Of a DNA stretch of 64,000 nt, positions 13,712 through 50,613 are shown piece after piece (the stretch's first letter is position 1; each line of letters starts with the position of its first letter). A model generated the notes under the pieces. The model had not been told where the DNA came from and ran no database searches. It saw only the letters and a list, made by a program, of their open reading frames with translations. The stretch is from a virus, in IMG/VR virus record IMGVR_UViG_3300018868_001080. One strand, 5' to 3'. The translations under genes were made by a program, and so were the position numbers.

Positions 13712-16165
13712 TTATTTCTTGGCATTCAGAGTAGGTTGTGGTGCAATTCTGTTGCCAGATTTTGTAGTTAACCCGCTTGCAGAGTCTCTCACTGCATTGT
13801 TGGATCTCTTCAATGTTAACGGCAGATTTTTGAATGTGTGACTATGACCATACAGTACAACACAGTCTTTGTCTGAGAATTGGCCTGTGGTTGTTGCAGA
13901 GTACACTGGTGCAGGCATGCCTCCAACGAATCCAGTCACAGAGGCCTTCACAGGCAAATCAAACATGGCACTCACAGTCACTTCATGACCAGCAGAATCA
14001 AAAAATATACCTATGGGTGTGCCCACAGGCACATAACCAATGTATCCCACACCAGGTGCAATGTCATTATATCCAATGATCTTTGGCACCAAGTTGGTTT
14101 GACCTGTGACAATTGTTCGATTGGTCTCTTGTATTTCCACTGGGGCTGTGATGTGGTTGACTGTCAGTTCACCCTCAATGTGTGCACCACCACCCACCAC
14201 CATGTTGCGCGCCACACCCAAGTTACTTTCAATAACAACTTGTTGGTTGTGTCGCTGCTTGATGTTCACAATGTCTGCTATCAATTGCAGTTTTTGTCCA
14301 CCATCAATGCACACCTCATTCTCACTAGCAATGTTTACCTGTTGACCAGCAATGTTAGTAATGGTGCCACTCACATTCACTGGTCCATAGCTTTTGAAAT
14401 TGATGCCACCAGCTCCTACCATTAAATTGTATCTGTTGCCAATGGTTTGTGTGAACGTACCACCAGGCAAATCATCCACATGCACATACTCAACCACAGG
14501 GCTTGGCTGTTGACTGTTGAACACACCTTCTGGGTGCACAATGACTGCATTGATGCTCATTTTTCCTACCTTGTCAATTCTTGTGGATGGCAGATCATTG
14601 ATGTCCATGCCAATGGTTTCAATTTTATTTTTTGTAATGCTAATGATCTCGCTGCCACCCACTCCCATTTGTTTCTCCAGATTTGCAAAATTATCCATGT
14701 TATCTGAAATGTATTTTGCTATTTGTTGCTTGCGAGGTTCAGTTAAGAAGTCACCATCTTGTGTGCTGGGGCTAATTCCTGAGCCATTGCATGCAGGACA
14801 CGTATCACCAAAGATTGTACCACCACCAGGAAATTTGCCTGAAGTGGCTGGTATGCCAATGGCAAAAGGTATAACAGCTGGTATGCCCATGTTGGACCAT
14901 GGTGAGTTTATCAAGGAAGTTGTTTCACCAGTGCCTGCATATACAAAGATGTTGTTTATTTTCCAATAGAAATCTTTGATATTCGTGCACACTGGACATG
15001 CTGCATTTTTGCCACTTTTGGATTGCAGGGGAGAGCTCAGATTAATGAATCCTTTTTTGACTGCATCCGCTCTTCTTGTTTCAAATAACTGCTTCAAGTC
15101 AGCCAATCCACGCAACAACTCTTTGTATTGTACGTGTGGCACGTAATTTAGATTTCCAATCTTTCTGTACAAATCTCCTCTGACAACACTGTCAAAATCT
15201 CTGCCCACATACAGATTTTTAAACCCATTGACTGTCAAGAACTGATCCTGCATCACAAGCTTTTGATCAGATTGAGTTGCAAGTTCTATGTTTGTAAAAT
15301 TATTAAATTCCTTGAATGAGCCAGAGAAATGTGTCATCTTGAGCACTTCACGATTGTCTGTGTTAACGAACTCCAGTGTGCCACCTTTCTGATTGATTAC
15401 ATACTTGTTGCGATACGTGTCAACATTTATGTCAAAAATGTCTTTGCCAGACAGAGAATAGTTTTCATAATACCCTGGGTAATCCTGCCCAGGTGCACTG
15501 TCACCCACACTGTCCACGCTATCATATATGCCCTTCCAATCATCCTTGCCATAGGCAACAGCAAAGTAAACTGGATGCATGACGTCACCATCTGTAAAAA
15601 ATACATACACATGTGAGCCCACATTGGGCACACCAAATGTGCCTTTGGCTCGGTTGGAATAACTGTTGGGTACATAATTGTAACTGTACTTGTTTGTGAT
15701 GTTGGTATTGTATTTTGCAGGGTCACTGAATGCATCGTTTAGTTTATACTCCACTGACTCATACACATTGGCCGGTTTTCCACCAATGTTATCAATGTTC
15801 TGATTGCCAATGTCCACGTTTTTTTCCAGTGTGGGGGCAAATGTGCTCAACCTTGCAGTATCAGACACAGAACCTGTGGCAGTAAAATAATTGAACCGAC
15901 CACTTGCAGCTTCACCACTGATGGGTGCAGCACATTCAGCCCAAGGCAGCTGCAGCTTCAAGTCTTCCAATATGGTGTTTATGCTGCTGTTGATGTTGTT
16001 GCCAAGAAATTTAAATTTCTTATCATTCAATGTGTCCACCCAGCCACGGTATGTTGTGGCCATCAAATGCGGCACCCACACTTTGACACGTCCGCGTCTT
16101 TGTGGATCATTATTTTGAACCACCATGCCCATGTAATTTCCGTAAAATTTCTGTCTCTTAGCCAT
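13712..16165 (-). CDS. Baseplate hub/central spike protein (gp5/VgrG-like), no lysozyme domain
   Basis: N-terminal YMGMVVQNNDPQRRGRVKV..LPWA..PNVGSHVYVFF OB-fold motifs; beta-helix repeats; C-terminal HSH. Confidence 0.8.
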   Translation of the reverse strand: MAKRQKFYGNYMGMVVQNNDPQRRGRVKVWVPHLMATTYRGWVDTLNDKKFKFLGNNINSSINTILEDLKLQLPWAECAAPISGEAASGRFNYFTATGSVSDTARLSTFAPTLEKNVDIGNQNIDNIGGKPANVYESVEYKLNDAFSDPAKYNTNITNKYSYNYVPNSYSNRAKGTFGVPNVGSHVYVFFTDGDVMHPVYFAVAYGKDDWKGIYDSVDSVGDSAPGQDYPGYYENYSLSGKDIFDINVDTYRNKYVINQKGGTLEFVNTDNREVLKMTHFSGSFKEFNNFTNIELATQSDQKLVMQDQFLTVNGFKNLYVGRDFDSVVRGDLYRKIGNLNYVPHVQYKELLRGLADLKQLFETRRADAVKKGFINLSSPLQSKSGKNAACPVCTNIKDFYWKINNIFVYAGTGETTSLINSPWSNMGIPAVIPFAIGIPATSGKFPGGGTIFGDTCPACNGSGISPSTQDGDFLTEPRKQQIAKYISDNMDNFANLEKQMGVGGSEIISITKNKIETIGMDINDLPSTRIDKVGKMSINAVIVHPEGVFNSQQPSPVVEYVHVDDLPGGTFTQTIGNRYNLMVGAGGINFKSYGPVNVSGTITNIAGQQVNIASENEVCIDGGQKLQLIADIVNIKQRHNQQVVIESNLGVARNMVVGGGAHIEGELTVNHITAPVEIQETNRTIVTGQTNLVPKIIGYNDIAPGVGYIGYVPVGTPIGIFFDSAGHEVTVSAMFDLPVKASVTGFVGGMPAPVYSATTTGQFSDKDCVVLYGHSHTFKNLPLTLKRSNNAVRDSASGLTTKSGNRIAPQPTLNAKK

Positions 16166-16198
16166 TGAATTATTAATATTTACTGTTATAATGAACAT
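16165..16198. promoter_or_regulatory. Overlapping divergent promoters: TTGAAT-N16-TATAAT (+) and TAAATA (-)
   Basis: TTGAAT 16165-70, TATAAT 16187-92, ATG 16199; tattta near 16177-82 on the minus strand. Confidence 0.65.
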
Positions 16199-17029
16199 AT
16201 GCTAATGAAAGTATCACATGAAACGCCTGTGTCTCTGTTGGAATATTCAAAGACTTACAATGATTTTGACTACTGTCTGGTGCATCTGTTGCATGAAAAT
16301 GTGGGGTCACCTCAACAGTTAGATTATTATAGTTTCTATAAATTTGGCAGAACTCTTCACAACAGAGAGGTGTTGCTGGACAATTCCATATTTGAACTTG
16401 GCAAAGCTTTTGATCCAGTGCAATTTCATAAATCTGTGCTGGACATTGAGCCAAACATGTACATTGTGCCAGATGTGCTGGAGGATATGCAAGGCACTGT
16501 GCACAGTTTCAAAGAGTTTGGTGACAAGAGAGATGACATAAGAAATGCATTTCAAACAAAAGCCATTGGTGCCATCCAAGGTAAGAACTGGCATGAGCTC
16601 CAAGAGTGTTACAAGTACATGTCTGAAAATGCAGACATGATTGCCATCAGTTTCGATTTTAGCTATTACCAGATCACGGGAGAGGGTGAGAACCCATTGG
16701 AGAGATGGTGCTCTGGCCGGCAACGTTTCATCACAGACTTGATGAACACAGGCATATGGGACTGGAACAAGCCTCACCATTTGCTGGGATGCTCCTTGGC
16801 CAAGGAATTCAGGTATTATGTGGACAATGATATTAGCAACATTGTTTCATGTGATACCAGCAACCCCATTGTGGCCGCCATCCATGGATTAAAATATGAT
16901 GCAGATTATGGGCTGACTACCAAGCCTTCAACCAAGCTGGTCGATCTAATTGCACATGAATTTACCGTTGATCAACTTGAGCTGTTAAAGTATAATACAT
17001 CCATGTTCAAGAAGATTATTCGCAGATGA
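16199..17029 (+). CDS. dpdA: TGT-fold 7-deazaguanine insertion enzyme (DpdA/DpdA3-like)
   Basis: LLDNSIFE, IVPDVL, GAIQG, HHLLG, SCDTSNP motifs; context with queF and a formyltransferase. Confidence 0.75.
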   Translation: MLMKVSHETPVSLLEYSKTYNDFDYCLVHLLHENVGSPQQLDYYSFYKFGRTLHNREVLLDNSIFELGKAFDPVQFHKSVLDIEPNMYIVPDVLEDMQGTVHSFKEFGDKRDDIRNAFQTKAIGAIQGKNWHELQECYKYMSENADMIAISFDFSYYQITGEGENPLERWCSGRQRFITDLMNTGIWDWNKPHHLLGCSLAKEFRYYVDNDISNIVSCDTSNPIVAAIHGLKYDADYGLTTKPSTKLVDLIAHEFTVDQLELLKYNTSMFKKIIRR

Positions 17030-17598
17030 AGCGTCCTTGGGTTGCATTTTTTAGCCAAACGGGAACAGAGATTCAACAGCTATGCAACAAGCTTGGCACA
17101 TATCCAGATTTGATTGTTACCAATCAACATCAACAAGGGAAAATTAACAAAGATTTGCTCACTGTTGCAACATCCAGAGCTGTATTATTGAACATGCGCA
17201 ACTGGGAAGTGTTGCCTGTGAAACCTAGTCTCAAGGATTACACTGACGCATTAGCTGGGTATGAGGAAAAAGATCCGCTCATCACACTGCATGGCTACCT
17301 GCGCATCATACCCAAGGAAATTTGTAACAAGTATGAGATGTACAATCTGCATCCTGGTCTTATTAATAAGTTTCCAGAACTCAAAGGCTACAACCCACAA
17401 GAGCGCGCTTTTATTGATGGATACAAAAGTGCAGGGTGTGTAATTCATAAAGTGACTCCTGGTGTTGATGAAGGTGACATCATATCATACAGTGAAATTG
17501 ATATTGATAGTCTCACACTACCTCAGGTGTACAGTGCATTGCATGCATGTGCACAGACACTGTGGCAGTCATTTCTCAGCCCACATGTTGCAGCTTAA
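17026..17598 (+). CDS. PurN-like formyltransferase (candidate preQ1 formyltransferase, DpdN-like)
   Basis: FFSQTG, LHGYLRII, YNLHPGL, GCVIHKVTPGVDEG. Confidence 0.85.
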   Translation: MKRPWVAFFSQTGTEIQQLCNKLGTYPDLIVTNQHQQGKINKDLLTVATSRAVLLNMRNWEVLPVKPSLKDYTDALAGYEEKDPLITLHGYLRIIPKEICNKYEMYNLHPGLINKFPELKGYNPQERAFIDGYKSAGCVIHKVTPGVDEGDIISYSEIDIDSLTLPQVYSALHACAQTLWQSFLSPHVAA

Positions 17599-17639
17599 TG
17601 ATAGCATTTTTGCAGGTGTGTATATAATATAATTACATT

Positions 17640-18008
17640 ATGAATAAAGAACATGTGCATGACGGTGACGCTGAAATTGTAAATGTTGTAGAGAATACAT
17701 ACCCACAGACATGTGATGAATTTAAAAAGATACAACTGGAACAGTACACAGTTTTTTGCAAGAAACAGAATGACTATGGTCCTCATAACATAAGCCTGGG
17801 ATCTGACTTGAAGCAACAAGAAGACAGAGAAGCATCCATCTCTGCCATTGTGGTGCGGTTGAATGATAAAATACAGCGACTCATAAACATGGTGCTGAGA
17901 AGAAAGACGTTTGTGGCTGCAAATGAATCCATATTTGATGCATTTTCAGATTCTGCTGTGTATTGCATCATTGCTGAGATTATCAAGAGAGGCAAGTGGT
18001 GCAAGTAG
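17640..18008 (+). CDS. Nucleotide-modification-associated domain protein (Nmad1/DUF1599)
   Basis: KKQNDYG..VRLNDKIQRL..ESIFDAFSDSAVYCII. Confidence 0.8.
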   Translation: MNKEHVHDGDAEIVNVVENTYPQTCDEFKKIQLEQYTVFCKKQNDYGPHNISLGSDLKQQEDREASISAIVVRLNDKIQRLINMVLRRKTFVAANESIFDAFSDSAVYCIIAEIIKRGKWCK

Positions 18009-18009
18009 T

Positions 18010-18180
18010 ATGTCATTAATGCATGCATGGAGAACATGGAATACCAAAGTTAAATCCCTTGAGGATGAATTGAGTATCATGTTGCAAGAGAACAAGATTC
18101 TTTTGGAAGAAATAAAGATGCTTAAAAAGCTTGTGTATGACTTGGAGATAGAGTATACTACCTTGATACGACGCAAATGA
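18010..18180 (+). CDS. Small coiled-coil protein
   Basis: Heptad pattern; coupled to both neighbours. Confidence 0.45.
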   Translation: MSLMHAWRTWNTKVKSLEDELSIMLQENKILLEEIKMLKKLVYDLEIEYTTLIRRK

Positions 18181-18767
18181 TATTCACTTTCACAGGCCCT
18201 CAGTGTTCTGGCAAATCTACATTGCTACAAGCATGTAAGAAGCATTATGACAGTCGGCTTACATATGTGGAAGAGGTTACACGACTCATCAAACGTGAGT
18301 TTGATGTGCCTATCAATGAAGAAGGTGCATGTGATATTACTCAGACTTTAATCTTGAATAAAGAATTTGAGAACCTGTTTATTGGTTACAAGTTGAGTGG
18401 CTTCCAAGGTATTCTGCATGATCGATGTTTGTTGGATGGCATGATATATACAAACTACTTTGCAGAAAAATATGGCAGGAACAAGTTCCAATTCTCAGAA
18501 GCTTTGGGTGCACGGTATTATTATTCACACATACACCGGTATGATCATATCTTTTATACCAATCCGCATGATGTGCCCATGGAAGATGATGGTGAAAGAA
18601 GCACGTGTGATCATTTCAGATCGCGCATCACTAGCATGTATGAAAATTTCTGGTTGGATGATATCAATATTCGTGGCAAAGTTACTATATTGCGGGGCAC
18701 TGTGGCAGAGCGTATGGAGCAGATCAAAGCTAAATTGCATGAGTTGCTGCCAAGTGCTACACGGTGA
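18177..18767 (+). CDS. P-loop nucleotide (dNMP-type) kinase
   Basis: GPQCSGKST, LHDRCLLD, EDDGERS. Confidence 0.8.
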   Translation: MIFTFTGPQCSGKSTLLQACKKHYDSRLTYVEEVTRLIKREFDVPINEEGACDITQTLILNKEFENLFIGYKLSGFQGILHDRCLLDGMIYTNYFAEKYGRNKFQFSEALGARYYYSHIHRYDHIFYTNPHDVPMEDDGERSTCDHFRSRITSMYENFWLDDINIRGKVTILRGTVAERMEQIKAKLHELLPSATR

Positions 18768-20089
18768 GTGACATGCCCTTTTGTTTGGCCCCTTGGGCAG
18801 GCATACATGCATTGCCAGATGGCCTGGTGTATCCTTGTTGCATGTCCACATTTGATCCTGAGAACGCGTTTGGTGACCTGAATGATAATGCAATTGAAGA
18901 TATCTTGAATTCAGAAAAAGCCAAGCAATTCAGATGCAAGATGATGGCAAATGAGCCAGATCAGAAGGCTTGCAGCCATTGCGTGAGTGAGGAAAAGACA
19001 GGTACAAAGAGTTTTCGTCATCACTGGAATACCAAGTATGCACATGCACTGCCACTTGTTGACAAGACAGACAAAGATGGTCATTATCATTTTGAAAACT
19101 TTCCCTACATTGATATACGGTTGTCCAGTTTGTGCAATTTTAAATGCAGAATGTGTCACAGTGGTTTGAGCTCTTCTTGGTTGCTAGAGGATGTGAAGTA
19201 TGCATCAAATTATCAAAATTCTTTCAATTCCAAGACTGGTGTCATTGAAATACCACAAAAAGAAAAACTTATCAAATTTATCATTGACAGAATTGAGCAT
19301 GTGGAAGAAATTGAGTTTGCAGGTGGTGAGCCTTTTCTAATATCTGATTACTTCACTTTGATAAAAGAATTTAAAAGGGTAAACAATCTTAACGTTAAAA
19401 TAAGATTTCATACCAATGCATCATCTTTGTTTTGCAAAGGTGAGTACATACCGGACTTACTCAAAGAGTTTAAGAACGTTTTTATCATGCTAAGCATTGA
19501 TGGTCATGCCCAAGTTAATGACTACATGAGAAAAGGAAGCATATACAAAAAAATTATTGCAAATGTGAGTCAGCTCAAGCAAATTGTGCCTCAAGCATTC
19601 CTAAGATTGGTACCCACCATTAGCATACCCACCATATACAGTGTGCCTTTCCTGTATGCAGACTTTCTACGCAAAGGGTTAGTTGGTCATGCAGACATTG
19701 CATGCAGACCATTGTACGGGCCTGAATATCTGAACATACAAACATTGCCGTTGGAGGACAAGTTAAAAATTCTAAAGTTTTACAATTGCTTCATTGACAA
19801 TGTGGCAGTTAAGCTTTTGCAGCGTTTCTCAGAAGAAAGTGTTGCATATGTGCGGCAAGAGTTCTCATCCATCATGAATTTCATGTTGCTCAAGAATCAA
19901 ATTGAGCCATTCAATAGCAAGAGATTCAAAGAGAGCATCAAGCGACTGGATGTGAGACGCAATGAAAGTTATGAAGATATTTTTCCTGAAACTGCACATC
20001 TGTTGTCAGGTGATGTGTCAACATACAACTTGGATATCAAATATAATGAGTTGAAGAACTTTGTAGATGGTATACAATATAACCAATGA
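18764..20089 (+). CDS. Radical SAM protein with N-terminal twitch/SPASM-like domain
   Basis: CLAPW..PCC..CSHC; CNFKCRMC; FAGGEPF. Confidence 0.9.
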   Translation: MSDMPFCLAPWAGIHALPDGLVYPCCMSTFDPENAFGDLNDNAIEDILNSEKAKQFRCKMMANEPDQKACSHCVSEEKTGTKSFRHHWNTKYAHALPLVDKTDKDGHYHFENFPYIDIRLSSLCNFKCRMCHSGLSSSWLLEDVKYASNYQNSFNSKTGVIEIPQKEKLIKFIIDRIEHVEEIEFAGGEPFLISDYFTLIKEFKRVNNLNVKIRFHTNASSLFCKGEYIPDLLKEFKNVFIMLSIDGHAQVNDYMRKGSIYKKIIANVSQLKQIVPQAFLRLVPTISIPTIYSVPFLYADFLRKGLVGHADIACRPLYGPEYLNIQTLPLEDKLKILKFYNCFIDNVAVKLLQRFSEESVAYVRQEFSSIMNFMLLKNQIEPFNSKRFKESIKRLDVRRNESYEDIFPETAHLLSGDVSTYNLDIKYNELKNFVDGIQYNQ

Positions 20090-21006
20090 ATACAGAATTA
20101 GATAACAGTAATATTGCCAAGCATTTGGGTAAGATCACTGGGTACAAGTGCACTTATGATCCCACATTGTTGGTTCGTGAACCCAGATGCAACAACAGAA
20201 AGCATTTGAATATTAGTGATGAAGCACCACCCTTTTGTGGTTATGATATTTGGAATGCATATGAGGTGTCTTGCTTGACCAATGAAGGCATGCCCATTGC
20301 TGCCATTGCCAAGTGTGTGTACCCTGCAACCAACAAATACATTGTGGAGTCCAAGTCCATCAAGCTGTACATGAATACTTTCAACATGGAGAAGTTTAGT
20401 GGCAGCATAGTTAGCGTTTTGAAGCAGTTGGAACAGGTGATTGCAAAAGACCTATCCACCCTATTAGAAACTGATGTGCAGGTCTATGTTCGTCTTACAA
20501 AAGCGGTTGATGAAGAGATGCATTATCCTCCCTTGTTTCCACGCACTGCATATCCTACACTGGAGAACAACATTGATGTGACGACTATCAAGTCCAGAGG
20601 TTACAAAGAGGATCCAGAATTACTTGGTTGGTTGCAAGGTGATGCAAGCAAAGTGCAGCGCTTTCATTCCGCCCTGTTAAAGAGCAATTGCCGGGTCACA
20701 TCCCAACCAGATTGGGGTGATGTGTACATACATTACAAAGGACCTTATGAGCTTAACCAAACCTCTTTGTTGCAATACATTGTGTCATTCAGAGATGAAT
20801 GTCATTTTCATGAAGAGATATGTGAGACCATTTACAAGCGCTTGCATGATCTGACAAAACCTGAAGAGCTCATGGTGGCCTGTTTGTATGTGAGACGTGG
20901 TGGCATTGACATCAATCCCATCCGAGCCAGTAGCCCAGAGCTGTTGGCACAGAATTGTGCCATTTGGGACAAGTACAAGTACTTTACTAAAACAGTGCGT
21001 CAGTGA
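20086..21006 (+). CDS. queF: preQ0 reductase QueF (bimodular type)
   Basis: VESKSIKLY, KSNCRVTSQPDWG, FHEEICE, RRGGIDINP. Confidence 0.95.
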   Translation: MNTELDNSNIAKHLGKITGYKCTYDPTLLVREPRCNNRKHLNISDEAPPFCGYDIWNAYEVSCLTNEGMPIAAIAKCVYPATNKYIVESKSIKLYMNTFNMEKFSGSIVSVLKQLEQVIAKDLSTLLETDVQVYVRLTKAVDEEMHYPPLFPRTAYPTLENNIDVTTIKSRGYKEDPELLGWLQGDASKVQRFHSALLKSNCRVTSQPDWGDVYIHYKGPYELNQTSLLQYIVSFRDECHFHEEICETIYKRLHDLTKPEELMVACLYVRRGGIDINPIRASSPELLAQNCAIWDKYKYFTKTVRQ

Positions 21007-21531: not shown

Positions 21532-23034
21532 TTAGAAGTAGACTGATTGTGTTCCAGGGGTAAAGGCAACGCCTAGACCCGAGAGGATGATAACGTGATA
21601 GTACAAGTTAGCACCAAAGATGTTATCGACAACACCGTAGCGGGTCATGAGACCAACACGGGGTGCGAAATCATTGGGACCAATTGTACGCTGTACCATG
21701 ACAGGGATGTATGGGCAGTAGATAATACCAGTATCATAGAACTCAGGACCCTTGTAGCCCAGAAGGGCATACTCGAGTGGCTGATTCCGGGTACCAGATT
21801 GGAACTGTGCCTCAGTACGTGTGTCACGATACACATTAAAACGTCCACCAAGCGAACCTACCTTAGCCACGCCTACCGGTTGTGTGTTTACGTTACCCTG
21901 GACAGGTACCCACTGGAATTCAGGGAGCATCTCTAGGATAGCACAAACGCGAGGTGTTGCAACAACAAAGTTGGCTGCACCACGACGATTACGAACGGCA
22001 ATACGGTTAGCTTCGATAATTAGTCTCTGATAGAAATCGCGATTACGTTCAACGAGCCAACGGCCGTCTGCTGAAGCTGGGCTCCAAACAGAGTAGCCGG
22101 CGCCTGCGCCAGCGTTTAGAGCGACCTGGATCATGCGGATGATCATTTCACGATCGATTTCTGCCTGTAGCTCATAGCTCATAGCATTTGTCAATTCTGT
22201 GTCAATGTCAATACCGTTCATGTTCTTGAGATCTTGCTCTAATTCAACTGACCAACGCGCGCCTAGTCTACGTGTACCGGCTTCAACTGCAGTTTTCTCG
22301 AAGGAAACCACGACCTGAGGGATAGATCCCGTCAATTCGTAATCCTTGAGAATACGTGCCACACCTGCATCTGATCCGAGGATCGAGAAGGCAGAGTTAC
22401 CGGACAAGCCGGCAGATGATGTACCAGTGAAACGTGTATCTAGGAACTGATAACCCAATTCTTGTCCATCAGTACCTGCGGCAGTCTGACTGCCGTAGTT
22501 TGTACCAACGGTTGTACCGGTGGCTGATGGCTGACCATCAACACCGTTACCAAGGGCTTCATTCTCGTAACGATAGCGCAAAGCAAATGCCAAACCCACT
22601 GGGCCTGACATGGGCTGCACGCCAACGATTTCATTAGAAATAAGTTCGGGGAACGTTCTACGAATCATGGGAATCAAGATCTTAGGAAGACGATAATCAC
22701 CAGCTGCATAGGTATCAGTTCCAGGTGTGCCAGCTGGATTTGAATTCCAACCGCCTGTTTGTGATGTGCCTATTGAGCCACCGGCAGTGCCGGCAGCATT
22801 TGAACCAGCTTGATTAGCATAACCAACGGCAGGGCTATAATTAGGCCCTGCTTCTCTCAAGCACCACTGCTCTTGGTTTTCCAAGAGAATGGCTGTGTTC
22901 AAACGGGTATGATCATCTTCGATAGCTGCAACGTTCTTGGAAGTGTAATCCAATACTGGACTCCACTTTTCAAGAAGAGCTGAAGCTCTTGACTCGTCAA
23001 TGTATGACTGCGAAGGACGAACAACTTTTTTCAT
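21532..23034 (-). CDS. gp23: Major capsid protein (T4 gp23-like)
   Basis: TAILLENQ, GVQPMSGPVGLAFA, WSVELEQDLK, EIDRE, YCPYIP, GLMTRYG. Confidence 0.97.
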   Translation of the reverse strand: MKKVVRPSQSYIDESRASALLEKWSPVLDYTSKNVAAIEDDHTRLNTAILLENQEQWCLREAGPNYSPAVGYANQAGSNAAGTAGGSIGTSQTGGWNSNPAGTPGTDTYAAGDYRLPKILIPMIRRTFPELISNEIVGVQPMSGPVGLAFALRYRYENEALGNGVDGQPSATGTTVGTNYGSQTAAGTDGQELGYQFLDTRFTGTSSAGLSGNSAFSILGSDAGVARILKDYELTGSIPQVVVSFEKTAVEAGTRRLGARWSVELEQDLKNMNGIDIDTELTNAMSYELQAEIDREMIIRMIQVALNAGAGAGYSVWSPASADGRWLVERNRDFYQRLIIEANRIAVRNRRGAANFVVATPRVCAILEMLPEFQWVPVQGNVNTQPVGVAKVGSLGGRFNVYRDTRTEAQFQSGTRNQPLEYALLGYKGPEFYDTGIIYCPYIPVMVQRTIGPNDFAPRVGLMTRYGVVDNIFGANLYYHVIILSGLGVAFTPGTQSVYF

Positions 23035-43723: not shown

Positions 43724-44470
43724 TTATCTTTTGGGTATGATAAGATTGCTGTAAAAGGATTTTTCATGCTTCTCTTTTTCAGATATCTGTTTCTGTGTGT
43801 TAATCAACTCCTCCATTTGCGAGGATGCTTGTATATCACTGATTACACTCTGATCTTCACCAATTAGATCGCCGTTCACATTGAGGTAATACCTCACCAA
43901 TTGTATTCTTTCCTCAGGCTTGCCAAAAATTTCCACTATGCCAGGTGAATCATCCTTGGGAAAAAACACAGACACACCTGTTTTTTGAATTTGTTGCACA
44001 ATGGTTTTGAATATGTTGTCTATTTCTTTGATGTAGACTTCATCTATCTCGCGCTTGTCATCTTGCACAACGGGCACAGGTGCTACACGTGTTATAGGTG
44101 TGAAGAATATGATGTCCAGATAGCGCATAGACTCACGCACCAACGGTATGCACTTGTCAATGAATTTGTCATCAAATTTATCGGGAGTCTTGCTGTTGCC
44201 CCAAAGAGAGTATATGATGTTATCCAAGGGACAACGGTCAAATATGATTTTGCTTCCCCTTTCACAATTTTTCTGCATGTCATCAATCATGCAGTTTAGT
44301 ATCTTCCACTGCAGATCTGGTGTGGATTCCTTGCTATGGGGTGCCTTCTCTTGCTTCAATATTTTTCTGTAACTTGAATCAATCTGTTTGTAGGATGGCC
44401 ATTCCTTTATGAAATCATTTATGAAGGTTGTTTTGCCTTGACAAGCGGATCCAGATACAGCAATTCTCAT
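43724..44470 (-). CDS. P-loop nucleotide kinase (start revised to MRIAVSG)
   Basis: GSACQGKTT, FDRCPLD, DDKRE. Confidence 0.8.
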   Translation of the reverse strand: MRIAVSGSACQGKTTFINDFIKEWPSYKQIDSSYRKILKQEKAPHSKESTPDLQWKILNCMIDDMQKNCERGSKIIFDRCPLDNIIYSLWGNSKTPDKFDDKFIDKCIPLVRESMRYLDIIFFTPITRVAPVPVVQDDKREIDEVYIKEIDNIFKTIVQQIQKTGVSVFFPKDDSPGIVEIFGKPEERIQLVRYYLNVNGDLIGEDQSVISDIQASSQMEELINTQKQISEKEKHEKSFYSNLIIPKR

Positions 44471-44524
44471 AACATATTTTACAGTTAATTTCAATATTTG
44501 CAAGCCTGCTTAAATAACATTATT

Positions 44525-45973
44525 ATGTGCGGTTTTCTAGTAACAAACAAGCCAGTGTCAGATGCAGAATTGGACCATGCAAATTTTTATATCAAATTCA
44601 GGGGGCCTGATCATACCGAGAAAACAAAAATAGAAAATATTAGCTTCATACACAACCTGCTCAGTCTCACAGGAGAATTTAGACCCCAGCCAATTTTTAA
44701 AGATAATATAGCTGTGGTCTATAACGGTGAAATTTATAATTTTAAGGAATTAGATAAAGATGCAAAATCAGACGGTGATGTAATTATTCCACTGTACAAA
44801 GAATATGGTGCCAATTTTCTTGATAAACTTGATGGTGAGTTCTCCATAGTGCTTATTGATTTTAATACAAACAAAGCAATATTAGCTGTTGACACCTTTG
44901 AAACAAAACCTCTGTATGTTGCACACAAGGGCCCATACTTTGGTGCTGCATCTCTGAGAAGCGGTTTAGTAAGGCTGGGATTCAAACATATAAGAGAATT
45001 GAGATGCAATACAGGTATAATATATAATATAAAGTCACTAGCAGTTGAGGACATATTTGAAATACATAAGTTTGATGTTGAAAATGAGCACAAGAAAACC
45101 TTTGATGATTGGCATAATGCCTTTGAAGCAGCAGTTTTGAAGCGGCTAAAATATGTGGATCTTAAGAAAACTGGAGTTGGTCTGCACTTAAGTGAGGGTC
45201 ATGACAGTGGCTCTATTGCAGCGTGCCTTAAAAAATACAACCTTTCGGATGATATCTTAATACATTCTTTCATAACACAGGATATGCATCCTGAAGTCTT
45301 GAGGTGGAGACATGGGCTTGATCAGGATACTTTGCCAAAGAATGGCAGTGGAGAAATTTTTAAATCTCCAAATTTTAAACGATCCATACTTGATAGTATA
45401 AGAGAGGAGGATTTTGTTTTGAGCAATATTTTATATAAGAAAAGAGTTGAGGATTTTGATTATTTTACAATGACACCCGAAGCAAAGCTGGAAGTAAGAA
45501 ATTCCTACTATCATTTCACAAGAAATATGTACCATCTTATATACAGAGCTAGATTGAAACATAGTTGCAGAATAGGGCTGGGTGGTTATGGTGGTGATGG
45601 TGTGTCAAGTGCGTGGGTAAATAAAATTTATAAGAAATATGGAAGCATATGGCCTATTATTAATTTCAGGGATAACTCGATGTATCTATCAGATATAATA
45701 GCAGGTTCTCTGGGAGTTGAAGTAAGAAACCCTTACATGGATAAAGCATTATGGCAGGAGTCTTTCTGGATGGATAAATCTGTCTATAGAAATGAAAACA
45801 ATAATCATAAACCACCATTGCATGACTATCTTGAGAAAGAGAAATTTCCATTTTATAAGAGAGATAAAAACAACGATATAGAGTTCTTCTGGATTGGATT
45901 CGGTAATTTTCTGAACTTTAACTCAGTACATAAAGACCCTATTTATGTACCGCAACCTGATATTACACTTTAA
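44525..45973 (+). CDS. Asparagine synthetase-like class II glutamine amidotransferase/ATP pyrophosphatase
   Basis: N-terminal MCG, RGPD, YNGEIYN, LSEGHDS PP-loop, GYGGD, EVRNPY. Confidence 0.85.
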   Translation: MCGFLVTNKPVSDAELDHANFYIKFRGPDHTEKTKIENISFIHNLLSLTGEFRPQPIFKDNIAVVYNGEIYNFKELDKDAKSDGDVIIPLYKEYGANFLDKLDGEFSIVLIDFNTNKAILAVDTFETKPLYVAHKGPYFGAASLRSGLVRLGFKHIRELRCNTGIIYNIKSLAVEDIFEIHKFDVENEHKKTFDDWHNAFEAAVLKRLKYVDLKKTGVGLHLSEGHDSGSIAACLKKYNLSDDILIHSFITQDMHPEVLRWRHGLDQDTLPKNGSGEIFKSPNFKRSILDSIREEDFVLSNILYKKRVEDFDYFTMTPEAKLEVRNSYYHFTRNMYHLIYRARLKHSCRIGLGGYGGDGVSSAWVNKIYKKYGSIWPIINFRDNSMYLSDIIAGSLGVEVRNPYMDKALWQESFWMDKSVYRNENNNHKPPLHDYLEKEKFPFYKRDKNNDIEFFWIGFGNFLNFNSVHKDPIYVPQPDITL

Positions 45974-46715
45974 GTGCTTTGTCCCAAATTACAAGCTGCA
46001 GACGCGGGCTAAAATTGAACATGTGCTTCTTGCAAAGATCGGCTACCATGGCCGCCTTTTCTGCTAATTCTGCCCTGCTGCCACAACAAGGCATCAACCA
46101 TACACGATTCTTTGGCACATTAACGTCAGGGTTGTTTATATACTTCTCCAGGATTTCCTGCACATCAGATTCACCGCTAACAACAAACTTGAACCCTGAC
46201 CCATTCTCTGCATGCCACTTTAAAACAGCGGGCTTGTATCTCTTTTCAACAGCATCCCCATTATTAGACAGTTTTGGTGATGTTGTGAACGTTGCCCTAT
46301 ATTCTGTTAGCCAGGCTTCATCCGGCAGAATGGTTGCATTGGTTTCAAAATCAATAACCGGCGTGTATCCAAATCGGTCTGCATACGAGCGCACTAATTT
46401 GAGCAATTGCTTCTGTTGAATGAGTGGTTCACCGCCAGTGATCTTCCATATGGCACCCTCGCGCAACTTGCACTCATATCCCTCTTGCAACAACAGATCC
46501 AATATGCTGTCCAAAGTCAACTTGTTCTTTACAGACCAGCTCACAAAGCTGTCACAACCATGTGGTGCAGCTGCAGAAGCAAATCCTTTGCATGTGAGGT
46601 TGCACATAGAAAGGCGCATGAACACAGAAGGCATGCCGGCATATTCACCTTCACCTTCAATGGTGTAAAAAATCTTATCATCACTAAGAAATAGTGTATC
46701 AATTGCATCAGTCAT
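45963..46715 (-). CDS. queE: 7-carboxy-7-deazaguanine synthase
   Basis: FYTIEGEG..GMPSVFMR..CNLTC..CDS, TGGEP, FETN, SPKL, SPRLQ. Confidence 0.92.
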   Translation of the reverse strand: MTDAIDTLFLSDDKIFYTIEGEGEYAGMPSVFMRLSMCNLTCKGFASAAAPHGCDSFVSWSVKNKLTLDSILDLLLQEGYECKLREGAIWKITGGEPLIQQKQLLKLVRSYADRFGYTPVIDFETNATILPDEAWLTEYRATFTTSPKLSNNGDAVEKRYKPAVLKWHAENGSGFKFVVSGESDVQEILEKYINNPDVNVPKNRVWLMPCCGSRAELAEKAAMVADLCKKHMFNFSPRLQLVIWDKALKV

Positions 46716-46818
46716 ATGTTTATAATAAATTATATTTCTTTGTTTTCAACTGGTTTCCTTGTTCAATATTATAATATATATGCCTCAAAAGAATGTTGCA
46801 CAGAATAAATAATTACAG

Positions 46819-47562
46819 ATGTCGAAAAAAGACAAGCTGCGTAAAAGAGCTGTAAGACAAGCCAAGGATGAAAACGGTATCATCAAGAATGACATTTTTC
46901 TCAACTTTAAAATTGATCAAAAATTTCACCTAAATGATCATCACAAAGCCTTTGTAGAGAAAGCCATGGCAGACACCTCACAGATTATATTCTGTGATGG
47001 TCCTGCAGGTTCTTCCAAAACATATCTGGCAGTTTATGTGGCTTTGTCCATGTTGCGAGACAAAAAAATAGAGGAAATAGTATACATCCGCAGCATTGTG
47101 GAGTCTGCCACAAGAAAATTAGGCAGCTTGCCTGGTGAAGTGGATGAAAAGTTCAAACCATGGAGCATACCATTAGTGGAGAAATGTGATGAACTTGTGG
47201 GTAAACAAATAACAGAAATGCTTTTTGAAAGCGATTACTTGAAGAGTATTCCAGTAAATTTCTTGCGTGGTTCAACATTTGCAAACAATGTTGTGATAGT
47301 GGATGAAGCGCAAAACTTGGAGCACAGTGAATTGGTCACTATTTTAACCCGGTTTGGCAAAAACTGCAAGCTGTTTGTCATTGGTGATTCCTTGCAATCA
47401 GACATACAGAAATCCGGCTTTGAGAAGATAATGCATGCATTTAATACAGAACAAAGTCATGAGAATGGCATCAGTGCGTTCCATTTCACAGAAGATGACA
47501 TCACACGCAGCAAGCTGCTCAAATTTATTGTGAAGGTTATTGCCAGTATCAAGATGAAGTGA
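46819..47562 (+). CDS. phoH: PhoH-like ATPase
   Basis: GPAGSSKT, LGSLPG, LRGSTF, DEAQN, GDSLQSD. Confidence 0.93.
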   Translation: MSKKDKLRKRAVRQAKDENGIIKNDIFLNFKIDQKFHLNDHHKAFVEKAMADTSQIIFCDGPAGSSKTYLAVYVALSMLRDKKIEEIVYIRSIVESATRKLGSLPGEVDEKFKPWSIPLVEKCDELVGKQITEMLFESDYLKSIPVNFLRGSTFANNVVIVDEAQNLEHSELVTILTRFGKNCKLFVIGDSLQSDIQKSGFEKIMHAFNTEQSHENGISAFHFTEDDITRSKLLKFIVKVIASIKMK

Positions 47563-47761
47563 TTTGAGACAATCTCTCTAATTCTTCAAGCGCTCTGCGA
47601 ATATTCTGTTGTGCCTCTGCACTGTACCCGGATGTAGCATCATGATGTGAATCTGCATCTGTTGCAGTCACCTCTTTGTCACCATTGATTATGGTGTTCA
47701 TTCTGCTCAACACATCTGTCTTGAGCTTTTGCAATTGCGGGTCTTTGTCGCGATGCACCAT
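47549..47761 (-). CDS. Hypothetical protein
   Basis: Abuts the queD stop codon. Confidence 0.5.
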   Translation of the reverse strand: MVHRDKDPQLQKLKTDVLSRMNTIINGDKEVTATDADSHHDATSGYSAEAQQNIRRALEELERLSQITSS

Positions 47762-48400
47762 TCAAGTGCCCCAAGAGGTTCCTGCATAAGGATTGCTTAT
47801 GCCGCGTGTCACTTTGTTGGTGAGCGGTGCACCAGACTCAATGTTCAGACCTGCATTCACTGCAGTTACATTCTGTAGTGCAGGTGGTATGGTAGTTGTA
47901 ACAGTTACTGCAGCTGCATTGCCTGAAGCTATACTGGTAGCGGTATGTGCAGTTTGTGTGGCTGTGGCAATTGCAATTGCAGAATTCTTCTCATGTTCCC
48001 ACACTTCCACCTGTTTAACCCAGCAACGACCATTGGTAAGATGTCTCACATGTCGATCAGCTGTCTCCAAGCACCATTCTGCAGTACGCTCGATGCCTAC
48101 TCCATTTTCCATGATGCGTGGTAATGCTGCACCTGCATGACCCAATGCAATGAATGTATCAAGTAGAGGATCATCACCTGCAATGCATAATGTATGATCA
48201 AATTGATGTTCTAATGCTTGCTTCAATTCCTTGAGACCACCAAAATCTACAACCCAATTTCTTGCATCTAAGTGTTCACACTCAAACCAAAATTTTGCCA
48301 CCAATCGGTAACCATGCACATATTTGCAATGACTGTCTGCTCTCCATTGTCTGAATGCGCAACTTCCCAGCTCTATAATCTTTGTACTTTCATGTTTCAT
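47762..48400 (-). CDS. queD: 6-carboxytetrahydropterin synthase with C-terminal extension
   Basis: HCKYVHGY, VVDFG, FDHT, VWEHEKNSA. Confidence 0.9.
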   Translation of the reverse strand: MKHESTKIIELGSCAFRQWRADSHCKYVHGYRLVAKFWFECEHLDARNWVVDFGGLKELKQALEHQFDHTLCIAGDDPLLDTFIALGHAGAALPRIMENGVGIERTAEWCLETADRHVRHLTNGRCWVKQVEVWEHEKNSAIAIATATQTAHTATSIASGNAAAVTVTTTIPPALQNVTAVNAGLNIESGAPLTNKVTRGISNPYAGTSWGT

Positions 48401-48406
48401 ATTTGA

Positions 48407-48502
48407 ATTATAACTGTGTTTGTTCGTTAATCAACTGTATACATACCAACTCTTTATATTACTGTATTATTATAACCAAATTAATTTAGAAATCAACTGT
48501 AT
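48407..48502 (-). promoter_or_regulatory. Tandem duplicated promoters ATACAG-TTGATT-N16-TATAAT
   Basis: Copies at 48407-48440 and 48469-48502. Confidence 0.7.
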
Positions 48503-48544
48503 TTGTTTGGAATTTATGCAATATAATGTTGCAACATGCACTTA

Positions 48545-49513
48545 TTAACTCTTGAGAGATCGGAGTGCGGTTATGGCTTGCTGATCATTAGGATTTTTTC
48601 TAATTCTTTGTATGAGTTCTTCTGCACGGCCTACATTCTGTTGCACTGGTGCTGTATCAGTGGCCACTGGATCTGCTGCACCAGTAATACCACCGCGACG
48701 GGCAGTACCAGCTATCTGTCGTTGCAACTGCTGCGGTGCACCACCTGCAGCAGACTTGAGCGCTTGACCCAATGCACGCGGTGCATTCACAATGCGTGAA
48801 TATGCACCAATGCCTTTGGTGAGCGCATTTACTGGTGCAGCTGCAATTTTACTGATCATATCTGGTCCCCGGGGTTGTGCAGGTTGTGGTGCAAGTGCAG
48901 CTGCAGCTGCAGCTTGTGCAGACACTTGATTGCGATAATTCTGATTGACAGTTCGTCCTGGTGCGCGCTGCTGCTGTGGTTGCTTTGGTTTGATTGTTGC
49001 TTTGGGTGCACTATTAGATGGTGCTGCAGGTGCGACAGGAGGAGCTGGAGGTGGTGGTATTTTTCCGCCCCCGGCAGTAGCTACAGGTGCTTTTACTGCA
49101 GGTGCAGGTGCTACTGCTGGTGCTGGAGCTACAGGTGGTACAGGTGCTACTGCAGGTGCAGGTGCTACAGGTACCGGGACAACTGCTGGCGCCCTTGATG
49201 CAGGCTTTACAGGTGCATTGGGCACTGTCTTGTACTTGCTGATAATATCCTGATACCTGCTCTCAAACTCTGACATCTTCTTTTTTGCAGCTGACTTCTC
49301 TCCCTGTGGTGCACTTGGGTCATTTGCAATCCTATTCATTACATCATACTGCTTGGCTATTTTTGCAGCATCAACAGGCTTTTTGCTTGCAGGTGCAGGC
49401 ACTGTCGTTGCTGCAGCTTGACTGGGCTGCGGCAATGATGGTCGAGGTGGTGGTAGCTGAGGTACACCCTGCTCTTCAATTAAACTGTGGAAGAAATTAT
49501 TAAACTTGCTCAT
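48545..49513 (-). CDS. Pro/Ala-rich low-complexity protein
   Basis: PAVAP repeats; MSKFNNFFHSLIEE N-terminus. Confidence 0.6.
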   Translation of the reverse strand: MSKFNNFFHSLIEEQGVPQLPPPRPSLPQPSQAAATTVPAPASKKPVDAAKIAKQYDVMNRIANDPSAPQGEKSAAKKKMSEFESRYQDIISKYKTVPNAPVKPASRAPAVVPVPVAPAPAVAPVPPVAPAPAVAPAPAVKAPVATAGGGKIPPPPAPPVAPAAPSNSAPKATIKPKQPQQQRAPGRTVNQNYRNQVSAQAAAAAALAPQPAQPRGPDMISKIAAAPVNALTKGIGAYSRIVNAPRALGQALKSAAGGAPQQLQRQIAGTARRGGITGAADPVATDTAPVQQNVGRAEELIQRIRKNPNDQQAITALRSLKS

Positions 49514-49913
49514 TGCTTAGAATATACTCCTTGTACAAATCTTTTATATGCACATCATTCAAGCCATTGTCCTTGAGTATGGCTTCAATTGCCACAATGT
49601 CAGCCAAATTGACAATCATTTCACCTGCAGGTGCACCCAGTTTTTGCAGAATAAAAGCTTTTAATCCTTGTAAATTATTGTGTGTAGGTGCTGCCACCAT
49701 GGAAGCAGGCAGATCCACCATGGGGTTCATGTCTTGTGCAGGTTGCATCACTACAATGGAAACTGAGCCACCACACTCATGCAGCACATAACCCTCATAG
49801 CCTGCATATGCTTTGAATGCATCATGCTCTTTGTTGAGAGGATCAAACTTTATGCGTATTCTTTTCAAATTCTGCGCTTTGGCAGTACTCTCAATTAGTT
49901 GATCAAATTTCAT
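49500..49913 (-). CDS. Late hypothetical protein
   Basis: MKFDQLIES N-terminus; TAAATA upstream. Confidence 0.6.
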   Translation of the reverse strand: MKFDQLIESTAKAQNLKRIRIKFDPLNKEHDAFKAYAGYEGYVLHECGGSVSIVVMQPAQDMNPMVDLPASMVAAPTHNNLQGLKAFILQKLGAPAGEMIVNLADIVAIEAILKDNGLNDVHIKDLYKEYILSNEQV

Positions 49914-49965
49914 TGACTATAATATTTATTATTGAATATCACAAACTTTAAGTTATATTATTAAT

Positions 49966-50613
49966 ATGTCTACAAAAGTATTAATTCCATACGCAAATCA
50001 TAACCACCCTCGATCTGAACAAGAGAAGCAGGAGATCATTGCACATGCTGCAAAAGCTTATGAAGCATATCTGGATGCATTGTGCATTGATTGGCGCAAT
50101 GATCCCAACAGTTCCAACACACCACACCGAGTGGCCAAAGCCTTTGTGGAAGATCTGGCCAGTGGTTGTTACAGTACCCCGCCCAAGGTGACTGCGTTTG
50201 CAAATGTGGACCAGTATGATGGCATTGTGTGTCAGAACAACATCAGAGTAACCTCACTTTGCTCTCATCACCATGCAGCGTTCACTGGTGTGGCACATGT
50301 GGCATACATACCTGCACGTGATGGCAAGGTCATTGGATTGAGCAAGCTTAATCGCATTGTGGACTGGTTTTCACGCAGACCACAGGTGCAAGAAAATCTC
50401 ACCATGCAAATTCATACACATATTGATGAAGCTTGTGTGAAGAACAATGGTGTAGCAGTCATGATTGAAGCCAAGCATTCATGTTGTTCCAACCGCGGCA
50501 TCAAGCATGATTCTACTATGCGCACTGCGCGCATGTCTGGTGCATTCCTGGACAATGGCGACAACTCTCGTTCAGAGTTTTACAAGTTCATTGAATTTGC
50601 ACAAGTGCATTAA
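49966..50613 (+). CDS. folE: GTP cyclohydrolase I
   Basis: TPHRVAK, SLCSHH, GLSKLNR, QVQENLT, HSCCSNRG. Confidence 0.95.
   Translation: MSTKVLIPYANHNHPRSEQEKQEIIAHAAKAYEAYLDALCIDWRNDPNSSNTPHRVAKAFVEDLASGCYSTPPKVTAFANVDQYDGIVCQNNIRVTSLCSHHHAAFTGVAHVAYIPARDGKVIGLSKLNRIVDWFSRRPQVQENLTMQIHTHIDEACVKNNGVAVMIEAKHSCCSNRGIKHDSTMRTARMSGAFLDNGDNSRSEFYKFIEFAQVH

Follow-up and report, generated by a model that had tools for sequence, protein, structure and literature searches.

A DpdA3/DpdN operon in an uncultured T4-like phage predicted to replace guanine with formylated preQ1, possibly at the nucleotide level

The DpdA3 subfamily of transglycosylases and the formyltransferase DpdN were both named in the study that found 7-(formylamino)methyl-7-deazaguanine (fdPreQ1) at 345,000 per 10^6 nucleotides, and no peak of dG, in the DNA of Flavobacterium phage immuto_2-6A (Cui, Hutinet et al., 2023; PMC10516641). 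Here, we analyze a related operon at positions 16199-21006 (+ strand) of a 64,000-nucleotide stretch (hereafter the window) of the linear IMG/VR record IMGVR_UViG_3300018868_001080, which is 112,223 bp long, has a CheckV completeness estimate of 53%, and derives from an uncultured T4-like myovirus. The operon represents a new and somewhat enlarged version of the known DpdA3/DpdN system for fdPreQ1, and the core of that system has already been described in one cultured phage. Judged from its genes, this virus very probably has most or all of the guanine in its virion DNA replaced by fdPreQ1, and resistance to restriction would be expected to follow. The explanation as a whole, a DpdA3/DpdN guanine-replacement system in which the base is exchanged at the nucleotide level, is assigned a probability of roughly 55%.

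Two other phages with a DpdA3, the Campylobacter Firehammervirus CP220 (dADG) and Cellulophaga phage phiST (dDG), also replace guanine completely, but stop at bases derived from 7-carboxy-7-deazaguanine (CDG), namely ADG and DG, and lack QueF and DpdN (PMC10516641), whereas the window encodes both proteins. The bacterial DpdA/DpdB/DpdC system of Salmonella Montevideo (PMC10164549) shares with the window a tRNA-guanine transglycosylase (TGT) fold, the same catalytic aspartates, and an adjoining partner that uses NTP. It differs in that the bacterial DpdA (bDpdA; chain 7ui4_A) has 436 residues compared with 276 in the DpdA3 of the window, and in that the partner is a ParB-like ATPase rather than a kinase fold. 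The extent of modification is also much lower outside the DpdA3 subfamily, as bDpdA modifies less than 0.1% of G, and DpdA1 and DpdA2 at most about 30% (PMC10516641).

The stretch 16199-21006 forms a single operon of seven open reading frames (ORFs), flanked by a gp5-like hub gene on one side and the major capsid gene on the other:

16199-17029, + strand: DpdA3-type guanine/7-deazaguanine transglycosylase of 276 aa, a minimal TGT TIM barrel, assigned by kinship to the immuto and CP220 proteins and by its AlphaFold2 (AF2) fold
17026-17598, + strand: DpdN-type (PurN-like) formyltransferase (PF00551), the start of which overlaps the DpdA3 stop (ATGA)
17640-18008, + strand: helical DUF1599/Nmad1-like protein of 122 aa (phrog_1485; sub-threshold DUF1599, PF07659)
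18010-18180, + strand: conserved ORF of 56 aa with a coiled-coil look (by eye, from the sequence), the stop of which overlaps the kinase start
18177-18767, + strand: DpdA3-associated AAA_28 P-loop kinase-fold protein (PF13521, phrog_2107)
18764-20089, + strand: N-terminal-twitch radical S-adenosylmethionine (SAM) enzyme (NF033640, N_Twi_rSAM), 441 aa from GTG 18764 (alternative ATG 18773)
20086-21006, + strand: QueF, two-domain preQ0-to-preQ1 nitrile reductase (PF14819, PF14489)

A preliminary description of this DNA had named five of these genes (TGT, formyltransferase, Nmad1/DUF1599, kinase, and QueF), all of which are present between 16199 and 21006, and the ATGA coupling it reported between the TGT and formyltransferase genes is read directly in the sequence. 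Its gene list was nevertheless incomplete, as the radical SAM gene and the 56-aa ORF bring the number to seven. A search for near-identical DNA among 50,697 phage records returned no match to the operon.

By its sequence and predicted structure, the first gene product is a genuine but minimal guanine/7-deazaguanine transglycosylase, because it combines the TGT fold with conserved active-site residues. The protein has no match in Pfam, and neither single-sequence nor profile searches against PDB sequences returned anything significant; in PHROG it matches phrog_19058 (E 3e-50). It is 40% identical to the annotated DpdA of immuto_2-6A (E 1e-64) and 41% identical to the CP220 homologue (E 4e-45), each over at least 94% of its length. 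Its cultured relatives at E < 1e-40 form two groups only, the Flavobacterium 'immuto' phages, whose homologues carry the annotation DNA guanine transglycosylase, and the Campylobacter Firehammervirus phages; the DpdA3 of phiST was not retrieved by tblastn. The AF2 model, computed from an alignment of 87 sequences, has a pLDDT of 96.5, and Foldseek ranks tRNA-guanine transglycosylases of bacteria and eukaryotes as its best matches (E 2e-9, probability 1.00). When compared by VIA-align with the Zymomonas TGT and the archaeal archaeosine TGT, the model gives a Z of 18 and a root-mean-square deviation of 3.0 Å over about 236 of its 276 residues.

Within the same 87 sequences, D61 (LDNSIFE), D92 (PDV), H194 and G197 (HHLLG), and D219 (DTSNP) are invariant and Q127 is nearly so, while F65 is invariant only among 15 close relatives. 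The succession D61-x3-F65, D92 about 31 residues on, and D219 has the spacing of Asp95/Phe99, Asp130, and Asp256 in Salmonella DpdA, and HLLG...DTSNP aligns directly with HLLG...SIDSTTP of 7ui4. The equivalence of the two active sites, with D61, D92, and D219 as the three aspartates for acid/base action, base recognition, and nucleophilic attack, is one of motif alignment and not of residue-level superposition. Past D219 the 87 sequences conserve neither Cys nor His, and the zinc site of TGT enzymes is therefore absent from DpdA3. The family is acidic, with a median isoelectric point of 5.4 and a net charge of -8. Relatives of this protein are very common in uncultured phages, where they form 3014 clusters when grouped at 90% identity and 1067 when grouped at 50%. 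Whole-genome replacement of guanine may therefore be a widespread anti-restriction strategy, although the chemistry is known from only a few cultured phages.

DpdN matches PF00551 with an E-value of 1e-16 (61 bits, cut-off 26), is 45% identical over 184 aa to the DpdN of immuto_2-6A (YP_010114479, E 2e-57), and carries the PurN-type Asn/His/Asp residues N107, H109, and D148. The PurN and Fmt models themselves match it far below cut-off, at 50 bits against 150. Natural fusions of DpdA3 with DpdN also exist (P0125, P0154; 447 aa). Other DpdA3 fusions, drawn from P0127, P0244, P0143, and P0170, include a GNAT-like domain (weak Pfam match, 419 aa), a 317-aa unnamed N-terminal region, and a NUMOD3 homing-endonuclease module; P0244 is a DpdA3 of 361 aa in total with a C-terminal tail that bears weak similarity to the Nmad1-like protein.

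The last gene of the operon, queF, would act on preQ0, and the genes for the preceding steps lie elsewhere on the record:

45963-46715, - strand: QueE, 7-carboxy-7-deazaguanine synthase, a radical SAM enzyme (matched only below cut-off by several QueE NCBIfam models, E 1.5e-13 at best; Fer4_12)
47762-48400, - strand: QueD, 6-carboxytetrahydropterin synthase (PF01242, E 2e-17)
49966-50613, + strand: FolE, GTP cyclohydrolase I (PF01227, E 1e-47; 55% identical to immuto FolE)
69855-70499 of the record, about 5.7 kb past the end of the window: QueC (PF06508, E 2e-59)

QueF matches both of its domain families (PF14819, QueF_N, E 3e-32; PF14489, QueF, E 7e-22) as well as TIGR03138, with an E-value of 3e-76 and 257 bits, under the cut-off of 293, and it contains the ESKSIKLY motif and the catalytic Cys202 in SNCRVTSQPDWG. 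QueD is 42% identical to the QueD of immuto_2-6A, and both proteins read C-x3-H-G-Y where the canonical motif is C-x3-H-G-H. The QueD of the window also has, at its C terminus, about 70 aa of Ala/Thr-rich low-complexity sequence that immuto QueD lacks. With FolE, QueD, QueE, and QueC as well as QueF all found, a complete route from GTP to preQ1 is encoded on the record. The preliminary description had placed queE, queD, and folE at 45963-50613, and domain or family matches bear out all three; it omitted QueC, which lies outside the window, and a second AAA_28 kinase, and it left the radical SAM gene out of the pathway.

The genes of the core, DpdA3, DpdN, the kinase, and QueF, stand in the same order in immuto_2-6A, to whose proteins they are 40, 45, 25, and 45% identical, and the two phages, both large myoviruses, also have in common the preQ1 pathway and the HGY variant of QueD. 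It is this synteny and homology with the only fdPreQ1 phage characterized by experiment, together with the full preQ1 pathway on the record, that lends good support to the earlier proposal of a formylated preQ1 in place of G. The confident TGT barrel and aspartate spacing of DpdA3, the PurN residues of DpdN, and the DpdA3-DpdN fusions count toward the same product. In the predicted scheme, FolE, QueD, QueE, and QueC would lead from GTP to preQ0, QueF would reduce preQ0 to preQ1, DpdN would formylate the aminomethyl nitrogen, and DpdA3 would exchange guanine for the 7-deazaguanine base on deoxyribose.

The two loci nonetheless differ in several respects. The immuto order is DpdA3, a small ORF, the formyltransferase, a 'thymidylate kinase', and QueF, and the small ORF is not in the window; conversely, immuto_2-6A lacks the DUF1599-like gene, the 56-aa ORF, and the radical SAM gene of the window. 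A PRA-PH hydrolase of the MazG clan, two genes upstream of DpdA3 in immuto, and a phosphoribosyltransferase, between its QueE and FolE, have no counterpart near the operon of the window. The latter also lies in the structural region of a T4-like genome, next to the gp5-like hub and major capsid genes, unlike that of immuto.

Further comparison was made possible by two scans of IMG/VR, which yielded about 80 distinct related loci with DpdA3 proteins 50-84% identical to that of the window; the counts given here use the 74 loci in which 2.4 kb or more follows DpdA3. Nearly all loci that show their flanks have the operon adjoining the major capsid gene, usually with the gp5-like gene as well. The kinase is present in 73 of the 74 loci and QueF in 72, followed by DpdN (53), the 122-aa protein (42), a GMP reductase (20), and the radical SAM enzyme (1). 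In the only locus that lacks the kinase, an insertion breaks up the operon and the sequence stops short of the position of that gene. In 16 loci, including the nearest relative of the window, the GMP reductase gene lies between DpdN and the 122-aa gene, and in four it lies past the gp5-like gene; one example is a protein of 323 aa (L007:7402-8373; PF00478, E 2e-53; NF003966, E 4e-99), and others are found in L008, L009, L011, L012, L013, and L026. The enzyme is absent from the 112-kb record of the window, itself about 53% complete.

DpdN is a real variable among these relatives, because a complete genome of 209 kb with terminal repeats (G003) encodes DpdA3, the kinase, and QueF and has DpdN nowhere. 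This genome belongs to a sister group of T4-like phages (loci L015-L019, L025) that has DpdA3, the kinase, and QueF only, and the final base of such DpdN-less relatives is presumably dPreQ1, not fdPreQ1. In the loci of this sister group, two or three unnamed + strand genes follow QueF.

The distribution of DpdN bears on the 122-aa protein, which the preliminary description suggested to be a MazG-like enzyme that removes canonical dGTP. Such a role is not borne out and does not fit the distribution of the gene, which follows DpdN rather than DpdA3: it never occurs without DpdN and is absent from all 21 DpdN-less loci among the 74 that keep DpdA3, the kinase, and QueF. The protein scores below threshold against Pfam DUF1599 (E 0.031, 15 bits, under the cut-off of 25), although DUF1599 is the best Pfam family in five of 11 orthologues (best E 0.012), and in 28 of the 30 ESM-Atlas clusters nearest to it, 19-59% of the members carry DUF1599. 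Its AF2 model has four helices and is poor (pLDDT 62). Searches of Pfam and of PDB sequences by profile gave no MazG-type match, nor did Foldseek, which with so poor a model returned nothing at E < 3, and hhalign of the 122-aa family against the MazG-clan PRA-PH hydrolase of immuto gave a probability of 0.15%. Against the C-terminal tail of P0244, hhalign gave an E-value of 0.024 and a probability of 2%, with common KxxxYG and RLxDKxxR motifs that are suggestive only. The 56-aa ORF is found by tblastn at the same position in relatives, with 77% identity in L152 and 39-55% in L006, L007, L010, L026, L125, and L132. Both small proteins may be accessories of the formylation branch.

The kinase-fold protein, in contrast, accompanies DpdA3 with or without DpdN. 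It matches PF13521 (AAA_28) with an E-value of 4e-15 (57 bits against a cut-off of 27) and phrog_2107, 'thymidylate kinase', with an E-value of 6e-20, and it is 25% identical to immuto gp203 (E 6e-12) and 31% identical to CP220 gp057. The protein is acidic and not ParB-like, and has no recognizable DNA-binding domain. A second kinase of this type lies beside QueE:

43724-44503, - strand: AAA_28/dNK-like kinase, paralogue of the operon kinase (PF13521, E 5e-12; dNK, E 5e-5)

The two kinases have a DRCxxD motif in common, and the second is kept in all five related genomes at 52-82% identity; it could provide for a further phosphorylation, or serve the phage more generally as a dNMP kinase.

The constant presence of a kinase fold next to DpdA3 bears on how guanine is replaced. 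For hydroxymethylcytosine, phage T4 uses the dCTPase gp56, the dCMP hydroxymethylase gp42, and the dNMP kinase gp1, so that the canonical nucleotide is cleared, the base is modified at the dNMP level, and the product is re-phosphorylated and polymerized. By analogy, DpdA3 may have as its substrate free deoxyguanosine in nucleotide or nucleoside form, for example dGMP, and not finished DNA, which we regard as an even chance and slightly favor over exchange on DNA. Re-phosphorylation of the modified nucleotide would then fall to the operon kinase, perhaps aided by its paralogue at 43724-44503, and incorporation into DNA to the T4-type polymerase of the phage, much in the way that T4 deals with hydroxymethyl-dCMP. 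The analogy is one of logic, as the T4 enzymes belong to unrelated families and act on a pyrimidine base, and as the route is proven in T4 and inferred here.

Evidence for exchange on the free nucleotide comes chiefly from gene neighborhoods. Besides the 73 of 74 IMG/VR loci in which a kinase-fold gene follows DpdA3, the pairing occurs, more tellingly, in separate lineages: in immuto, in CP220 (an HD plus AAA_33 protein, DpdA3, and directly after it the AAA_28 kinase), and in CC_R7 (QueC, DpdA3, kinase, and DNA polymerase). In Chryseobacterium phage MA9V-3 (L193), a distant DpdA3-like gene (E 6e-3) abuts a kinase of a different family (AAA_18/33), with a dCTP-deaminase-like gene nearby, and the neighbor of DpdA3 in phiST is dUTPase/MazG-like (PMC10516641). 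The recurrent neighbors (kinases, NTP pyrophosphatases and HD proteins, GMP reductase, and phosphoribosyltransferase) handle mononucleotides, and therefore fit a T4-like scheme and would be superfluous for a simple swap on DNA. The lack of TGT zinc ligands and the acidic character of the DpdA3 family point the same way. Complete replacement has been found only in phages with DpdA3, and efforts to obtain a functioning DpdA3 in E. coli were unsuccessful (PMC10516641); the restriction of complete replacement to DpdA3 fits exchange on the nucleotide. The paper that defined DpdA3 mentions no kinase (PMC10516641).

The strongest competing explanation arrives at the same product by a DNA-level route, in which DpdA3 places preQ1 or formyl-preQ1, as the free base, into duplex DNA that has just been replicated, by base exchange, the P-loop protein is an ATP-using helper akin to DpdB, and the nearby nucleotide enzymes belong to ordinary phage nucleotide metabolism. 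We consider this combination a serious contender, though somewhat short of an even chance. All characterized TGT and DpdA enzymes act on polynucleotides, and DpdA3 keeps their active-site residues. The authors who defined DpdA3 propose post-replicative insertion (PMC10516641), and because bacterial DpdA requires the ATPase DpdB to modify DNA (PMC10164549), a P-loop neighbor need not be a nucleotide kinase. The complete replacement seen with DpdA3 is likewise conceivable on DNA, given that insertion of 7-deazaguanine by a TGT is effectively irreversible. Several of our own results also weigh against exchange on the nucleotide. The sequence of the operon kinase gives no substrate, as it has no match to the Pfam Thymidylate_kin model and a profile of 15 orthologues finds only weak matches among PDB sequences, to thymidylate kinases (E 0.004-0.03) and the NadR ribosylnicotinamide kinase (E 0.03). 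No fusion of DpdA3 with the kinase occurs among the best 150 cluster representatives. The 73 of 74 loci represent far fewer independent observations, since related loci are phylogenetically clustered. No enzyme that would clear dGTP (MazG or HD) scores above threshold on the record, although its absence means little because the record is only about half a genome. More generally, the record is that of an uncultured phage and is estimated to be 53% complete. A predicted complex of DpdA3 with the kinase (score 0.02, mark 0.32) is evidence neither way.

Other observations are difficult to reconcile with insertion into DNA. The partner has a small kinase-type fold (AAA_28, or AAA_18/33 elsewhere), is acidic and unlike ParB, and shows no recognizable DNA-binding domain. 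GMP reductase, NTP pyrophosphatases, the HD hydrolase, and the phosphoribosyltransferase would have no obvious role, yet they recur beside DpdA3 in separate lineages. The DpdA subfamilies that act on DNA do not exceed about 30% replacement (PMC10516641), and DpdA3 lacks the zinc subdomain. The preliminary assignment of the exchange 'probably at nucleotide level' is accordingly best read as a serious possibility raised by comparative genomics, with the published proposal of post-replicative exchange on DNA standing against it.

Taken to its full extent, exchange on the nucleotide would mean that DpdA3 is not a DNA-modifying enzyme at all but a transglycosylase of free deoxyguanosine nucleotides or nucleosides, and that guanine replacement is pre-replicative, a proposal that we advance tentatively and at rather less than even odds. 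If correct, the system would be for a purine what the hydroxymethylcytosine pathway of T4 is for a pyrimidine, complete with a dedicated kinase, and GMP reductase or an NTP pyrophosphatase would bias the nucleotide pool in some lineages. DpdA3 would also be the first TGT-fold enzyme to act on a mononucleotide, and the pathway would provide enzymes for making 7-deaza-dGTP analogues of use in sequencing and synthetic biology. The gene neighborhoods thus offer a concrete and testable alternative to the published post-replicative model for 100% replacement.

A second alternative, independent of the question of route, concerns the radical SAM gene, which may tailor the base further, so that this phage and a relative with a complete genome of 217 kb (L026) would make a derivative beyond fdPreQ1, such as one with a methylated, oxidized, or cross-linked side chain. 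This is unlikely on balance, but the gene itself is clearly functional, under strong purifying selection, and recently inserted, and its insertion is the one feature special to this window. The protein matches NF033640 with an E-value of 3e-90 (303 bits against a curated cut-off of 170), and consists of a SPASM domain at residues 7-73 and a Radical_SAM domain at residues 121-276. Its CX3CX2C motif (C124/C128/C131) is intact, as are the N-terminal twitch cysteines at positions 7, 25, 26, 58, 70, and 73. The ORF overlaps both the kinase stop and the QueF start, and across the IMG/VR and metagenome scans it is found inside a DpdA3 operon only here and in L026, where the radical SAM protein is 85% and the capsid protein 95% identical to that of the window. 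Between these two phages the ratio of non-synonymous to synonymous substitution rates (dN/dS) of the radical SAM gene is about 0.04, with synonymous sites nearly saturated; its dN is the lowest of the operon, and it is the best conserved gene there. Its orthologues, in about nine clusters at 52% identity or more, make up a small clade set apart from the rest, and beyond it identity drops to 33% or less.

Retention in two phages, position within the operon, intact cysteines, and a clade of its own all favor a role on the base. Against such a role, the gene is present in just one of the 74 related operons, phage operons often take up unrelated genes, and no solved or named relative hints at a substrate. 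The wider family has more than 590 matches in IMG/VR, typically at about 30% identity, many of them in arrays of around five per 13 kb (411 members over 79 loci, L027-L105, with L071 and L077 as examples). The neighbors in these arrays include a carbamoyltransferase, a B12-radical-SAM protein, and several unnamed families; none of the 79 loci has deazaguanine genes nearby, which indicates that the family is mobile and not tied to the pathway. Should the enzyme nevertheless act on the base, the final product would differ from plain fdPreQ1, contrary to the prediction made above, and two phages would contain a further, undescribed base.

The weakest alternative, that the genes serve RNA or cofactor metabolism through a tRNA-modifying TGT, a PurN of purine synthesis, and Que genes that boost host queuosine, draws on the role of TGT and Que genes in tRNA modification in cells and on the matches of the formyltransferase to PurN models, but is highly improbable in view of the low scores of those PurN and Fmt matches, the nearest relatives being the DpdA3 and DpdN of a phage with fdPreQ1 demonstrated in its DNA, the absence of the tRNA-binding zinc subdomain from DpdA3, and the existence of DpdA3-DpdN fusions.

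The remaining features of the two regions are as follows:

13712-16198, - strand: gp5-like hub gene, 5' neighbor of the operon
16165-16192, + strand: sigma-70-like promoter match (TTGAAT, 16 nt, TG-TATAAT), its end 7 nt upstream of the DpdA3 start
21532-23034, - strand: Gp23-type major capsid gene, 3' neighbor of the operon
44498-45973, + strand: AsnB-like class-II glutamine amidotransferase (GATase_7, E 5e-19; asn_synth_AEB, E 3e-30, below cut-off)
48545-49513, - strand: ORF of 322 aa
49500-49913, - strand: ORF of 137 aa
50656-51312, - strand: ORF of 218 aa
51340-54075, - strand: ORF of 911 aa

The promoter is a match to consensus only, and such matches in the region are not above shuffled expectation. 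The four ORFs surrounding FolE have no Pfam or NCBIfam match, and the three smaller ones have no PHROG match either. The AsnB-like gene overlaps QueE head to tail. It was considered as a core member of the Gat-QueC type and rejected, as it occurs in one of five related genomes, with an in-frame TAG there, and is absent from both complete ones; the amidotransferase is probably outside the core of the pathway.

Beyond the relatives discussed above, distant DpdA3-like genes 23-25% identical to that of the window are found in two cultured phages, MA9V-3 and Bacillus phage BSTP12 (L192). The BSTP12 gene is annotated 'NadR', has a weak DUF6610 match, and lies between a P-loop protein and DNA polymerase I, and its neighbors are annotated as Gat-QueC, 6-carboxytetrahydropterin synthase (QueD), GTP cyclohydrolase 1, and FolE.

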